Assembly: GCA_964016885.1 (NCBI GenBank)
Contig: OZ024751.1
Location: forward strand, 16,306,001 to 16,370,000
From: Eledone cirrhosa
Lineage: Eukaryota
DNA length: 64,000 bases
Reading direction: 5' to 3'
The notes below the pieces were generated by a model. The model was not told the origin of the DNA. It made no database searches and worked only from the letters and a program-made list of their open reading frames with translations. This document shows positions 3,438-59,028 of the stretch, in pieces (position 1 is the stretch's first letter; each line of letters opens with the position of its first letter). The position numbers and the translations under genes were made by a program.

Positions 3438-3605
3438 ATATATATATATATATATATATATATATATATATATATATAGTTGTTGTATGGTTGCAATAAA
3501 TGCGTCCATAGGCTGTATGCCGTTTGAGCACTCGATGCTCGCGCGGAGCAGAGTATATTATCATAGATAACGAGGAATCAGAGATTCATCAAAACACAAT
3601 TTATT

Positions 3606-3699
3606 AACATATTACATATGTTTCTCCGACGATCAGCTCAAGGCAGGATCTGTTATAGATCGATCCTGACTCTGCATTCGCAAGGTCCTCAGACATGTT
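3606..3699 (-). ncRNA. Type I hammerhead ribozyme motif in a (TA)n-flanked element (~3480-3750)
   Basis: Minus strand: AACATGT-CTGAGGA-[long stem II incl. CAGGATC/GATCCTG]-GAAAC-ATAT-GTA-ATATGTT; 7-bp helix I. Confidence 0.8.
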
Positions 3700-3756
3700 T
3701 ACCGTTTTCAAGGTATTTCTTACGTTTATAGGTATTTTTTCCGTTTATATATTTAT

Positions 3757-4335
3757 TTATATATATATATATATATATATATATATATATATATATATAT
3801 ATATATATATATATACACATATATATATATATATATATACATACATACATATATATATATATATATACATACATATATATATATATATATATATATATAT
3901 ATATATGTATATATACATACATATATATATATATATATATATATATATATATATATATGTATATGTATATATACATACATACATACATATATATATATAT
4001 ATATATACACACATATATATATATATATATATATACACATATATATATATATATATATACACATATATATATATATATATATACACACATATATATATAT
4101 ATATATACACATATATATATACATATATACATATATATATATATCTATACATACATACATATATATATATATACATACATACATATATATATATATATAC
4201 ATATATATATATATATACATATATATATATATATATATATACATATATATATATATATACATATATATATATATATATATATATATATATATATATATAT
4301 ATACATACATACATACATATAGACACACACATACA
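3757..4335. repeat. Interrupted (TA)n/(TACA)n microsatellite
   Basis: Directly visible. Confidence 0.95.
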
Positions 4336-4732
4336 TATCATTAACGTAGGCTCACACATTGGAGACACTATTTATTACTTGATCACGCGGCAATATTTCG
4401 TTACGTTATGCGGAATAAATCAATATGTTATCTGTGATTAATTGATAGTTAAACACTATTATTGTTATTGATAACATATAGTTCTTGCAAATGTGTAAAT
4501 AAGAAATATACTCTATTTAATTTTATTTTGATTTAATAAATATATATATTTTTTGGAAAAATTAATGATACTTCAATTGTTTTGCATAACACCATGAAAT
4601 TACAAAAAATTTTATTTAAACACATACCCAGTAAATTTATAACTTTTTCTATATATGATTACATTCTATCAATGGCAGTTGCAAAATTCGCAGCCATATG
4701 ATGAGTAATTTTCTACGGCATATGTAAAAGCA

Positions 4733-4960
4733 ACTGGCTTAGTGGCTAGAGTGTTGTATTCACAACCGTGAGGTTGTGAGTTCGATTCCAAGCCCGAAAG
4801 AAGCGTTATATTCTTGAATAAGACATTTTACTCGACGGTGCTCTTTCTGCCACGAGTTGCGACCGGCAGATACTATCAGAAATTGGAAAGACCAATAGAA
4901 ACATTGTTTTCTTGGTTCAATATGATGTGTTTCACTACAGTAAGCGAATGAGGTCTGGGA
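4733..4960 (+). mobile_element. Degenerate tRNA-derived SINE
   Basis: A box TGGCTTAGTGG, B box GTTCGATTCC; related to ~26745-26900 and ~46258-46640. Confidence 0.6.
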
Positions 4961-5009
4961 ACTTGTCGATCTTCAAAATACAAACGAAAAAAAATTAAAC
5001 ATATATATA

Positions 5010-5280
5010 GTAATAATAAATGTTCGATAAAAGAGGGTTCGATAAGGATTATAAGTATATATATATATATATATATATATAGTAATGATAAATGCGAAGT
5101 CTAAAATGTATATAAGGATTATGTATATATAAATTTATATATATATATATATATATATATATATATATATAAAGCCGTAGAGCAAATATCTATTATAATA
5201 ACAGATTAAAGTTTAAACAAAGAATCGCTGCTTTCACCCTTAATGGGATCTTCAGAAGATCCCGTTAAGGGTCACAGAAT
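5010..5280 (-). mobile_element. Penelope-like terminal remnant with HHR-like core; family also at ~40946-41010 and ~43935-44115
   Basis: Minus strand CTGAAGA-T-CCC-ATTAA-GGG-T-GAAA; shared ATAACAGATTAAAGTTTAAACAAAGAATCGCTGC; helices I and III not convincingly formed. Confidence 0.5.
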
Positions 5281-5319
5281 CGATATATATATATATATAT
5301 ATATATATATATATATATA

Positions 5320-55546: not shown

Positions 55547-55876
55547 CAGGGTGGGCCAGAATTCATGACTCACTTGATTATCTATAGATCGATTAACACA
55601 GGCTGCAGACTTCAGTGATGTTGTATGTTTTAGCAAATATTCTCACACCTTGAACACCTTTTTTCAAGCTTAGCAAAGTATGTGCCATGGTTAATCAAAT
55701 TTAGAAAAAATAAATAAAAAAACCTGTGAGGCATATTAAGAAATAAAAATATATATTAAGAAACCTGCTAAGCTTATTAAGAAATAAAATAATAAATTAA
55801 AACAATAAAATAACAATAAAATAAGCATGTTAAGAAATATAGCTAACGAGCGAGTCATGAATTCTGGCCCACCCTG
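55547..55876. mobile_element. Tc1/mariner-type MITE
   Basis: Perfect 25-bp TIR CAGGGTGGGCCAGAATTCATGACTC with TA on both sides. Confidence 0.92.
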
Positions 55877-57022
55877 TACATTTCAATAATTGAAAGCCGC
55901 TATATAAGGTCATGGGCTGCAGCTCACGTATCTTATATTTGGAAAAATATTTTAATTACCAGAATTATTTTTCATTAAATGGCATTTATGTTTGATGATA
56001 TTTTACGTTTAGCTTAATTGAAAAATTTGCTGTGGTTGATTAGTCATAGTCTAAGCCTAAAGTTTGTCTCCAGCCTGGACGCCCATCAGACCGGTGCTTA
56101 TCCCGGTTTCCATCACAGGGTTAAAATCCCAGCTATTGCTGGTACTCATTTGCAGTTGAGTATACATGAAATGAAGTGTTTAAGTCAAGAACACAACACA
56201 CAACCCAATCCAGGAACTGAAAACACAATGTTATGGTCATAAGTCCAGCACCCTTACCATTAAGCCACGTGCTTCTATAAGCCAACTGTAGCCATAAGCC
56301 AACTTTATTCAAATAGGTCTATGACCATAGACAAGCAATTCTTTTTTTGTATCCTGAAATACATTGTCTAGACTTTCAGGCCTTTTTATCGTGAAGTTTA
56401 TGTCTTTAGATATTTCGAACTGCTATTTCTAGTAAGTAGATCGTGAGACCACATAGAAGCATCTTTGATGAATTGGATATAATTGGCTTGGTTATTGAAT
56501 ATATTAGCAATAGACAACATGTATTGCACTTTAGGAGAAACATTAGATCAGGAAATTTGGTTAACATAGCCGGATGTCTTCTGAAAATTATCAATGAACA
56601 TAAATTTGACTGAAAAGAAAATACTTAAATTAGATCCCAAGCGGCCGAAATATGTCACTGAATCAGCGTGTAAATTGATTTATTACTGCAATAACTGAAT
56701 CTGATACCTGGAAAATACAGCTATATCTAATTACATAATTTGACATAATGAAGTCACGTAGTTCACTATAAATATAATTAACGATAAAATATCTTGACAC
56801 GAAACGTTCAAATTCGTAGCTGTTTTGGTTTCTAAATCACATAAGCGCCAGGGAGTGCCATAGTGGATACTGTGATAAGCTGTACACTGCACCTGTGTAA
56901 GTAAGTTTAGATGGTCTCCTGTAAGGTTAGATCACATAGGAGGTTTGTCGGGTGTTGGAATTAAATTTTTCTATTTAAATCTACATAACATTTGCTATAT
57001 ATATATATATATATATATATAT

Positions 57023-57940
57023 ATATTAGTGAAAAAGAACAAAGGAACTATTATGACATTATAACAAGTTTATTGCCGACAGCCGTTTCGTCCGACCCCA
57101 TGGTGGGACTTATCAAGGCATATAACATGTGATTGCAAGATCATTGTTTACATAAACGTATCACTCAAGGCTAGCAGTTTGAAATTGTTGTATACATCAG
57201 CAACTCCGCTTTAAGGGGGGGCTCTTTTATATTAGTTGTCGGGGTCAGGGATTGAAGTTTAAAAATTAGACAAAAATATATAATTCACGCATCAATTTCA
57301 ATTCAGTTTTCTGAATTTTGTAAACGTGATCTCGGGGGAAGAAGGTTTTTTTCTTTCGGAAAAAATTTTTTTTTTCTCTAGAAGAAATTTCATAGGAACT
57401 CTATATATTTTTTAGGGAAACTTTATATTTTTTATTTTCTTATTTTATTAGCCTCTTAATTTTCTTCTAGACTAATAGGTTTATTGGAGCCTGTAAGCTT
57501 TATGCACTCATTGAGGGATTTTCTGAGGTGCTTCTACGGGACCCCAAGTCTTTTGGTCTAATGTTGATGCGTGAATTATATATTTTTGTCTAATTTTTAA
57601 ACTTCAATCCCTGACCCCGACAACTAATATAACAGAGCCCCCCTTAAAGCGGAGTTGCTGATGTATACAACAATTTCAAACTGCTAGCCTTGAGTGATAC
57701 GTTGATGTAAACAATGATCTTGCAATCACATGTTATATGCCTTGATAAGTCCCACAATGGGGTCGGACGAAACGGCTGTCGGCAATAAACTTGTTATAAT
57801 GTCATAATAGTTCCTTTGTTCTTTTTCACTAATATTTCTGCTCTGCGTATACGCATAGAGCTTAACTAGCTACCGTCACATATTTGGTAAGTCAGACGTG
57901 ATCATCGCGATTCACATACGACCTACCATACATCTTACTT
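57023..57940 (+). mobile_element. Large foldback HHR element
   Basis: ~272-bp arms 57023-57295/57564-57835; tail with GCTC-TGCGTATACGCA-TA-GAGC; (TA)n on both sides. Confidence 0.9.
57738..57784 (+). ncRNA. Hammerhead motif, U3-A8 core variant (mirror 57074-57120 on minus)
   Basis: TGCC-TTGATAA-GTCC..GGAC-GAAAC-GGCT-GTC-GGCA. Confidence 0.8.
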
Positions 57941-58530
57941 ATATATATATATATATATATATATATATATATATATATATATATATATATATATATATAT
58001 ATATATATATTTATATATATATATATATATATATTTATATATATATATATATATATATATTTATATATATATATATATATATATTTATATATATATATAT
58101 ATATATATATATATATTTATATATATATATATATATATATATATATATATATATATATATTTATATATATATATTTATATATATATATTTATATATATAT
58201 ATTTATATATATATATTTATATATATATATATATATATATATTTATATATATATATATATATTTATATTTATATATATATATTTATATTTATATATATAT
58301 ATATATATTTATATTTATATATATATATTTATATTTATATTTATATATATATATTTATATTTATATATATATATATATATATATATTTATATATATATAT
58401 ATATATTTATATTTATATATATATATATATATATATATTTATATATATATATATATATTTATATATATATATTTATATATATACATTTATATATATATAT
58501 ATATATATATATGTATGTATATATACATAC
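57940..58530. repeat. ~590-bp (TA)n/(TTTA) microsatellite
   Basis: Directly visible. Confidence 0.95.
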
Positions 58531-58537
58531 ATAATAT

Positions 58538-58860
58538 AATAAAACAGGGACTAGTGGTTACTCCTTCATTACGTTTATTGGTTGGTGATGCGCGTTTCGC
58601 CACTGATCAGCTCAAGGTTCGATCTGTGTCTGACGAGCCGTGGATTACAATGTCGGGCTAGATCGATACAGATCGAACCTTCACCTGATCAGTGGCGAAA
58701 CGCGCGTCACCAACCAATAAACGAAAATGAAGGAGTAACCACTTGTCCTTGTTTTATTTTCCTGTAATACACTCTGTCTAGCTCTACACCTCAACACAGA
58801 AGAGAACCTAAACATCGAGTACTCACCCGGGTGAACCTACAGTAACTCCACATTACGCTA
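58538..58860 (+). mobile_element. Foldback element with HHR at 58628-58710
   Basis: Arms ~58538-58630/~58666-58759; CTGACGA-GCCGTGGATTA..TGATCAGTGGC-GAAAC-GCGC-GTC; 5' strand of helix I mostly lost at the junction. Confidence 0.8.
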
Positions 58861-58911
58861 CACACACACATATATATATATACATATATATATATACATA
58901 TATATATATAC

Positions 58912-59028
58912 ATTTAATTAGAAGGTGAACAGCACAAACTATATGTTGTGCACCTTCTAATTAAATAGCTCTGTTCTATACATAGAGCACTCTTTTTCCG
59001 TTTGTTTTTCTTTCGGAATTACCTAACA
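58912..59028 (+). mobile_element. Micro-foldback plus tail
   Basis: ATTTAATTAGAAGGTG/CACCTTCTAATTAAAT then GCTC..GAGC hairpin; tail similar to 49240-49302. Confidence 0.7.

Follow-up and report, generated by a model that had tools for sequence, protein, structure and literature searches.

A covarying, bulged hairpin marks the insertion ends of hammerhead-bearing, (TA)n-targeting Penelope-like elements

Our analysis of a 64,000-nt stretch of Eledone cirrhosa DNA (contig OZ024751.1, positions 16,306,001 to 16,370,000; hereafter the window) showed that many of its short, hammerhead-bearing retroelements, probable members of the Hydra clade of Penelope-like elements (PLEs), carry a bulged hairpin that stands a few bases beyond the point where the shorter end of the insertion stops. 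A first-pass annotation had proposed a second conserved RNA element apart from the hammerhead ribozyme, and both the covariation of the stem and its position, which tracks the end of the inverted arm, uphold that proposal. We conclude that the hairpin is a real covarying RNA element of Hydra-clade PLEs, two copies of which, hairpin 1 (H1) and hairpin 2 (H2), predict both insertion ends. The window has a G+C content of 34% and dense (TA)n runs, and self-comparison reveals many short foldbacks whose outer ends adjoin (TA)n, the insertion target of the Hydra clade. Each arm of a foldback runs outwards in the hammerhead sense; one stops early (the short end), and the other has a tail (the long end).

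The motif, of about 20 nt, reads RCUC, then the 5' strand of an upper stem, which has a pyrimidine first, a loop that may have any length, the 3' strand of the upper stem, a 2-nt bulge led by U, and GAGY, with a lower stem of 4 bp (RCUC/GAGY) and the bulge on the 3' side. Bare ACTC..GAGT or GCTC..GAGC pairs are common (53 within 85 nt on the + strand of the window). The U-led bulge and a first upper Watson-Crick pair are nonetheless found at all 11 sites of the first-pass annotation, which had been picked on the four closing pairs alone, versus 4 of the 66 other RCTC..GAGY pairs in the window. Further up the stem, at pairs 2-4, Watson-Crick pairing holds for 26 of 33 cells, compared to 13.2 when the 3' strands are permuted among families (one copy per family, 11 families), and none of 20000 shuffles scored as high. 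A strict scan of the whole window gave 14 starts, namely 12 hairpins in TA-flanked elements, one alternative start within one of those hairpins and one match outside such elements (21553). A sequence model trained on nine of the first-pass hairpins ranked four held-out sites next (53541, 8655, 49241 and 33312); 59778 received a poor score (E 9.4), and the two long-loop sites were absent from its list. Rfam matched no hairpin site at gathering score among the window matches listed (150 of 213), which were only microsatellite-driven miRNA matches and one tRNA-like match (23685-23763), nor in four loci of the second genome described below.

This second source of sequence came from a pattern scan, which found six motif loci in one assembly, G001, that carries animal DNA. 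G001 is a 12-Mb assembly filed as a bacterial species, and its many animal contigs, rich in PLEs and hammerheads, represent host contamination. Sixty of its regions (240,586 nt) were analysed, picked partly on the motif and partly on open reading frames (ORFs); the family counts omit one of 13 groups, FAM 7, a chance pairing across a TA run. When 21 family representatives (9 from the window, 12 from G001) were aligned, 98.6% of 140 cells were paired, and both partners had changed in 28 cells; shuffles gave 7.8 such cells (none of 500 as high) and slid controls at most 5. Two other covariation measures, the pairs with any double change and the number of further pair types, did not rise above shuffles in these representatives. 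RNAalifold, unprompted, predicts the same bulged stem on the alignment. The covariation check suggested by the first-pass annotation thus comes out in favour of the hairpin. The covariation appears strong, short of a formal R-scape test, because the instances had been selected on the outer and first upper pairs, which inflates pairing there, and because kin families are not independent in such counts. RCT often stands directly 3' of GAGY and creates the palindrome GAG-YR-CTC (12 of 12 G001 families, which are partly selected, and 5 of 11 window families).

The position of H1 relative to the short end is nearly fixed. At 14 window junctions, whose ends were set by hand, the gap from the short end to H1 is 0-15 nt at its smallest (median 5) and 0-16 nt at its largest, when letters shared with the TA run are left uncredited. 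Across eight window families, with hand-set distances, the standard deviation of the short-end position is 3.3 nt measured to the hairpin and 15.0 nt measured to the hammerhead cut; a ruler anchored on the hammerhead was rejected on this comparison. For 11 window hairpins, the chance that all short ends would fall within the 20 nt before the hairpin, choosing among TAT/ATA sites, is 6e-7, with families taken as independent and the span chosen post hoc. In G001, 20 of 20 same-family short copies, from eight families, end 1-6 nt before H1, after exclusion of 16 of the 36 short entries that are partial matches to sister families and not ends. One of these G001 families has no TAT/ATA within 14 nt, yet four copies end 6 nt before H1.

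Sequencing reads extend this to a much larger number of copies. On positions 53487-53655, 16194 contigs of one run (X1) and 21286 raw reads of another with the same species label (X9) could be placed. (TA)n is joined at 53570, 5 nt before the hairpin, in 201 of the contigs and 3458 of the raw reads, the best-supported end among the loose ends listed in both, although restriction-site-associated DNA (RAD) reads do not each represent an independent insertion and the window may itself derive from the sample behind X1. Two runs from other organisms gave three records each, too few for use. Among RNA runs, none was listed with a match to 54280-54414, the one stretch queried, a result that has no bearing on expression. 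The covered stretch has 35 positions with read variants at a frequency of at least 4%; those in the hairpin concern two loop bases, the second base of the bulge and one C>U change, the last being the only stem variant at this threshold and one that keeps a G-U pair on the sense strand. Arm ends are not randomly placed relative to the hairpin, the comparison that the first-pass annotation had called for: the gap is fixed in thousands of reads and in a second animal. Roughly 18 nt 5' of the hammerhead GAAA the read coverage drops almost to nothing and the loose ends are mixed, and the copies seen here of this very high-copy family are without the 5' half of the hammerhead core.

The long end bears the same relation to H2, which lies 38-93 nt beyond H1; where H2 is visible, long (tailed) ends stop 3-8 nt before it. 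A tandem array at 1-1471 (+) consists of at least 2.6 units of about 557 nt, 99.7% alike and running past the window start, and is missed by Tandem Repeats Finder because its period is >500. Each unit has a type I hammerhead (95-166 in unit 1, from core to cut site, read from the sequence; further cores at 652 and 1208) and an H1 (250-273, 806-829 and 1363-1386, all +, weak model matches). In each full unit H2 follows 93 nt after H1 (367-391 and 923-947, +), with a UC bulge and an upper stem of 6-7 bp. The lower stem of the array H1 is GUUC/GAAC, a compensatory change at an otherwise invariant pair, and both hairpins fold with the bulge as single sequences. A relaxed scan of the unit found three hairpins, one of them overlapping the hammerhead, versus 0.065 expected. 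The array joins (TA)n 8 nt (3 nt after shared TATAT) before the place of H2, its last unit ending just short of it. Since the array was examined after the two-hairpin rule had already been set, it provides a real test of the rule, though a single one. No ORF of at least 120 aa is found within 1-1444.

In G001, both Hydra ORF starts with intact upstream sequence have a hairpin 20-40 nt before the N-terminus (a third start is truncated). The locus L265 has two hairpins 43 nt apart and an ATG 22 nt after the second; three other copies of its family join (TA)n 35 nt after H1, which is 8 nt (4 nt after shared letters) before H2. At L252, 5 nt separate H2 from the preceding 18-nt stretch at which four sister long copies pass into (TA)n, and the Hydra N-terminus follows. 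L265 is the only genuine case among three matches to a double-hairpin pattern in G001. Long copies there end 31-44 nt after the hairpin in 11 of 12 families. Read by eye, H1 lies 2 nt into the published consensus of Hydra-1_Ajap, and H2 follows at a distance of 38 nt, still ahead of the ATG; in that of Hydra-1_Crog, 6 nt precede a variant hairpin at the start and 45 nt follow another one at the end. Many window tails contain an additional hairpin of variable sequence shortly before the long end.

The link to the Hydra clade comes from the ORFs and consensuses that carry the same hairpin. Of six published Hydra consensuses, all listed as (TA)n-targeting (PMC8557442), three have the exact motif (Hydra-1_Ajap, Hydra-2_Ajap and Hydra-2_Amil) and Hydra-1_Crog has its variant (by eye); the shared hairpin is a marker of the present analysis and stands outside the published clade definition. 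Among the PLE ORF matches in G001, 34 are Hydra-type and 145 Neptune-like. The exact motif follows 6 of 20 hammerheads behind Hydra-type ORFs, 0 of 13 behind Neptune-like ORFs and 4 of 25 with no ORF, where the six include one artefact of an inversion junction and one of the 20 belongs to a Neptune-type family; most of the other Hydra entries are short copies. The G001 ORFs carrying the hairpin have the RWK and DKT motifs and a CxCX5C linker, and no CCHH. Motif-bearing G001 families contain an ORF with reverse transcriptase (RT) and GIY-YIG domains, which was not found in the motif-bearing window copies. The Hydra protein clade is large, with 1147 clusters at E 1e-30 or better, and other prokaryote assemblies close to G001 yielded a single Hydra-type ORF, decayed and with no hairpin that could be read.

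PLE ORF remnants occur in the window at 29991-30733 and 27068-27352 only, and both are Neptune-like, a label taken from the linker motif in PMC8557442. The former belongs to a 5'-truncated copy (28527-30969) with the thumb and GIY-YIG region, a frame break near 30188, an inverted arm and a 40-nt tail in which the motif was not found; the latter is a second endonuclease fragment nearby. The 80 metagenome loci related to this ORF, which served as a negative control, total 257,497 nt and contain 28 motif matches; no hammerhead precedes any of these, nor does the motif follow any of 20 hammerhead-like sequences, many of the Neptune-like copies ending before any tail could show. At L280 of G001, behind a weak Neptune-like match, the long copy extends beyond the short end; an ACTC word and a small stem trailed by TT are found there, without a GAGY partner, possibly a related signal in another clade.

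We favour, as the best reading of these data, a role of the hairpin in binding the RT and thereby setting its priming site. It is likely that the Hydra-clade RT binds the hairpin and starts cDNA synthesis just 5' of it, so that two hairpins would give two starts and, between them, the tail. The elements would be short insertions of Hydra-clade PLEs, or of non-autonomous RNAs using their protein, with the order hammerhead, H1, H2 and ORF start in the RNA. The hairpin would form in the cellular RNA, and the RT-endonuclease would bind one hairpin on the sense strand. At a nick in (TA)n DNA, and aided by 0-8 nt of A/U pairing, target-primed cDNA would then begin about 5 nt upstream of that hairpin. 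The junctions would thus correspond to synthesis starts, a start before H1 leaving a short end and a start before H2 a long end that copies H1 and the spacer as the tail. Two nicks would allow two cDNAs to be made on opposite target strands, and their joining at the truncated far ends would produce a foldback with a tail on one arm, a two-primer scheme also modelled on the twin priming of L1. The first-pass annotation had assigned the signal to the second cDNA only; this does not hold, as the same spacing is seen for the long end relative to H2. The RT of PAc, a Poseidon-clade element, starts internally in vitro at both tail ends and on both target strands, and a PAc dimer has been predicted (PMC11167929). 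A more detailed version, which we put forward tentatively, is that each protomer of an RT-endonuclease dimer binds one hairpin copy and starts 5 nt upstream. Hairpin spacing alone would then set the tail length and the one-sided tail of foldbacks, hammerhead RNAs bearing the pair, such as the array, might be mobilised in trans, and the palindrome after the stem might pair two template RNAs.

A number of observations, in addition to the selection and kinship caveats given above, weigh against this proposal. Four of the window gaps are 8-15 nt even at their smallest. H2 is visible in five cases only, two of which are hand-read consensuses; the L252 case rests on 18 shared nt, and the array H2 has a mismatched outer pair and a distance from H1 of 93 nt instead of about 40. 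Other folds are predicted for several single tails, antisense folds are often more stable, and the two-hairpin leader of L265 shows no gain in fold stability over shuffled sequences (z +1.57); single-strand folding stability was rejected as evidence on these grounds. Read by eye, the Hydra-1_Obim consensus has a broken motif only, and in that of Hydra-1_Amil, which ends 48 nt after the hammerhead, the motif was not seen. Neither a Hydra ORF remnant nor a match to a short motif of Hydra-1_Obim was found in the window, and the Hydra identity of its copies is therefore argued from motif, target and hammerhead, from which we infer that they belong to this clade. Lastly, the PAc RNA of Fig. S1 in PMC11167929 lacks the motif and PAc starts inside an AC-rich stem-loop, so the geometry would not be general to all PLEs.

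The alternative that survives best, unlikely as we judge it, is RNA processing, in which a cut or pause directed by the hairpin terminates the RNA some 5 nt upstream and synthesis is then primed from the new 3' end in the ordinary way. Such processing accounts for all the genomic spacings equally well, and genomic data cannot separate it from RT binding; in Anolis, both tail ends coincide with ends of RNA-seq reads (PMC11167929). It is opposed by the internal starts of PAc on 3'-extended templates and by PAc endonuclease mutants, which left RNA cleavage unaltered (PMC11167929), evidence that is indirect because it comes from another clade. We also consider it quite unlikely that the signal acts at the DNA level, with the GIY-YIG endonuclease reading the motif or the GAG-YR-CTC palindrome in cDNA or double-stranded DNA and cutting beside it to set the ends. 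Craig et al. attribute the tail to endonuclease resolution (PMC8557442), the D. virilis endonuclease required the tail for recognition (as cited in PMC11167929), and RCT follows the stem in all 12 G001 families, in regions partly chosen on that word, and in motif-bearing consensuses. The upper-stem sequence varies freely, however, with pairing kept, which requires a folded single strand (single-stranded cDNA would also fit), RCT follows in only 5 of 11 window families, and G-U-compatible variants, at few positions, favour the sense strand.

An antisense template boundary, in which an RT copying towards the element's 3' end is halted by the complementary hairpin, seems very unlikely. An antisense template has been proposed for Penelope (PMC3846280), and antisense folds are equally or more stable in most tails, but long ends hold a full H1, so that read-through would be needed half the time, the wobble variants fit the sense strand, and the template from which PAc extends the nicked target in vitro, at the tail ends, is sense RNA (PMC11167929). 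Equally hard to sustain, and slightly less credible, is the idea that A/U-rich pairing with the (TA)n primer alone sets the ends, the hairpin serving translation control or packaging and lying nearby by descent. Most junctions do have 1-8 nt in common with the TA run, and H2 does stand 20-40 nt before the ORF start. Pairing alone is nevertheless contradicted by the 6e-7 chance given all TAT/ATA sites around the 11 window hairpins, by the G001 family whose copies end 6 nt before H1 with no TAT/ATA within 14 nt, and by the ORF-less array, which retains both hairpins. A chance pattern in an AT-rich, repeat-dense window is refuted by the background and shuffle tests, the held-out model sites, the G001 ends, the covariation, the RNAalifold prediction and the independent published consensuses, common as bare four-pair stems (53) and loose matches are (63 in G001 versus 57 for a control pattern; 120 viral loci for a similar word). 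The 120 viral loci with the single-hairpin pattern look like chance, one having a hammerhead-like word upstream; none of 31 viral double-pattern loci passed, and the viral contigs contained no PLE relatives.

Within the window, all 11 stems of the first-pass annotation are present at their coordinates and on their strands, and the six arm ends it quoted agree with ours within 1-2 nt (smallest gaps 5, 5, 8, 4, 12 and 0 nt). Its statement that an inverted arm ends before the hairpin is correct for eight sites, including 8299 and 54344, where we find the 5'-truncated inverted copy and one-sided tail of endonuclease-positive (EN+) PLEs; there is no arm at 3530, 50684 and 51482. The sites are not unrelated families, as had been claimed: they form nine families, divergent members of one clade, in which 8299 and 54344, together with the unlisted 53541, belong to a single family (77-83% alike) and 7567 and 54125 have the hairpin in common. 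Many of the stems do lie downstream of a hammerhead, which by eye is reduced to its 3' half at 8299 and 54344 and is missing from the 27-nt arms at 58912-58966. Nor is the motif common to all foldbacks. Among 18 foldback or paired elements it is present in 10 (nine by the strict scan, 7219 by a looser one), a one-mismatch form is present in four (33267, 49063, 49526 and, by eye, 43910), and it was not found in 2687, 10327, 28561 and 52047; one-mismatch matches are common (137 starts in the window), so the four one-mismatch foldbacks weigh little. Five type I hammerheads pass a strict scan of the window, and additional ones, identified by eye, include forms with a long loop II and one U3-A8 core, a variant described for PLEs (PMC4209133).

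The foldbacks with H1 on the + strand are 6743-7195 (hammerheads 7005-7054 on + and 6792-6841 on -, short end mapping to 7103-7105, H1 7111-7130) and 7222-7655 (hammerheads 7456-7502 on + and 7278-7324 on -, short end at 7558-7561, H1 7567-7591 with a decayed upper stem). They also include 53740-54187 (H1 54125-54149, short end 8-9 nt ahead), 54230-54415 (54344-54367, 5-8 nt ahead), 57026-57939 (57840-57861, 4-7 nt ahead, with the U3-A8 core), 58538-58861 (58771-58820, 12 nt ahead) and the short foldback 58911-59028 (58968-58988, short end immediately ahead). On the - strand are H1 of the high-copy foldback 8252-8426 (8299-8322, short end 5-6 nt ahead) and three hairpins that the first-pass annotation had missed, as it had the pair in the array. 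These are 53541-53564 in the foldback 53487-53711, where the reads join (TA)n at 53570, 8655-8674 in a short element beside (TA)n, the held-out model match there scoring 25.6 bits, and 59778-59810, whose sister copy 61307-61446 ends 15-16 nt ahead. Single-copy elements with H1 and no inverted arm are found at about 3480-3757 (3530-3554, -, downstream of a hammerhead with a long loop II), 50617-50745 (50684-50702, +) and 51255-51612 (51482-51562, +, with nine upper pairs and a long loop). One-mismatch forms of H1 occur in the foldback 33267-33452, of the family of 50684 (33312-33330, -, short end 11-16 nt ahead), and in 49066-49302 (49241-49261, +, 3-6 nt ahead). A foldback from 43946 has a degenerate hairpin with a long TA-rich loop (44063-44108, +), by eye and weak, the short ends of two copies lying 2-9 nt ahead. 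In the foldback 49356-49762, the 170-nt tail contains a long one-mismatch hairpin, which stands 6 nt beyond the short end, as well as another 3' half, a perfect one, near 49410-49420; the element may be a decayed two-hairpin copy.

Hammerhead stem-loop II has long insertions in the elements at 3480-3757, 51255-51612 and 58538-58861 and at 95-166, and words in this loop are common to the 3530 and 58771 elements. Two hammerhead-like sequences lie in a nested inverted arrangement, without the motif, at 2695-3434. A long foldback at 10271-10946 has a compact hammerhead and a 61-nt tail without the motif; it has a short central word in common with 28790-28806 and perhaps belongs to the same non-Hydra group. 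A dispersed repeat some 190 nt long and SINE-like (short interspersed nuclear element-like) recurs in the window at 11 or more positions (9986-10132, 14462-14766, 18069-18219, 23841-24025, 32821-33012, 36403-36612, 42161-42471, 43167-43362, 48404-48582, 51689-51880 and 59330-59531). The TA-flanked sequence at 5320-5720, with short terminal inverted repeats, is presumably MITE-like (miniature inverted-repeat transposable element-like), and we take the open frames at 8824-9195, 35336-35902 and 45743-46114 to be fragments resembling non-LTR (long terminal repeat) retrotransposon proteins.

Tails, inverted copies, hammerheads, (TA)n targeting and internal starts of PLEs are already known (PMC8557442, PMC11167929, PMC4209133). 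The closest system is the Hydra clade of C-terminal EN+ PLEs, for which (TA)n targets, a type I hammerhead near the 3' end, inverted truncated copies, a one-sided tail and an octopus family have been listed (PMC8557442). It differs in that its tails are 30-40 bp long, whereas those of the motif-bearing window elements measure 61-121 nt and those in G001 about 55-70 nt, and in that the window copies are ORF-less; the parts of that paper considered here make no mention of the hairpin, its doubling or the end spacing. Poseidon_Ac (PAc) resembles the present elements in having two internal RT starts that correspond to the tail ends, downstream of the hammerhead and near the ORF start, and in using AT-rich targets with both strands extended (PMC11167929). 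It belongs to another clade, however, and starts in a single AC-rich stem-loop; the RNA depicted has no RCUC/GAGY motif, and the parts of that paper considered here propose no conserved or doubled element. The ORF-less tandem units with type I hammerheads described as non-LTR retrozymes, and proposed to be non-autonomous PLE derivatives (bioRxiv 10.64898/2026.07.22.740005), are matched by the array at 1-1471, whose non-coding units each have a type I hammerhead, and by the foldbacks, which we also liken to the opposed minimal hammerheads found 100-700 bp apart (PMC4209133). The parts of the preprint considered here name no cis element for RT recruitment, the words 'hairpin', 'stem-loop' and 'tail' being absent from its main text.

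In the literature searched, which leaves subscription papers and repeat databases outside its coverage, we found no description of the hairpin, its doubling or its spacing. The one-sided tail and the two alternative 3' ends have been described for two decades, and internal RT starts were tied to them recently, for one element and with no placement rule. The motif predicts both ends to within a few bases in at least four animal phyla (the window host and the coral, sea cucumber and sea louse consensuses). It is also a candidate cis signal for ORF-less retrozymes borrowing a PLE RT and a marker for assigning ORF-less repeats to the Hydra clade and trimming consensus ends. It offers exact mutations for an existing in vitro assay and may be a very small handle for retroelement-based gene insertion into (TA)n.

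More distant parallels exist among other reverse transcriptases. The telomerase template boundary element is a helix bound by a sister RT family, located 5' of the template, where it stops synthesis; the first-pass annotation had offered such a boundary as one reading, which does not fit, as on the sense RNA the hairpin described here is found 3' of the short junction and is itself copied in long ends. The stem-loops of the R2 and L2 3' untranslated regions and epsilon of hepatitis B virus (HBV), itself a bulged stem-loop, are structured RNAs that recruit an RT and position its start. In those systems synthesis starts at the RNA 3' end or in the bulge, whereas in the elements described here it would start internally, just 5' of a doubled stem.

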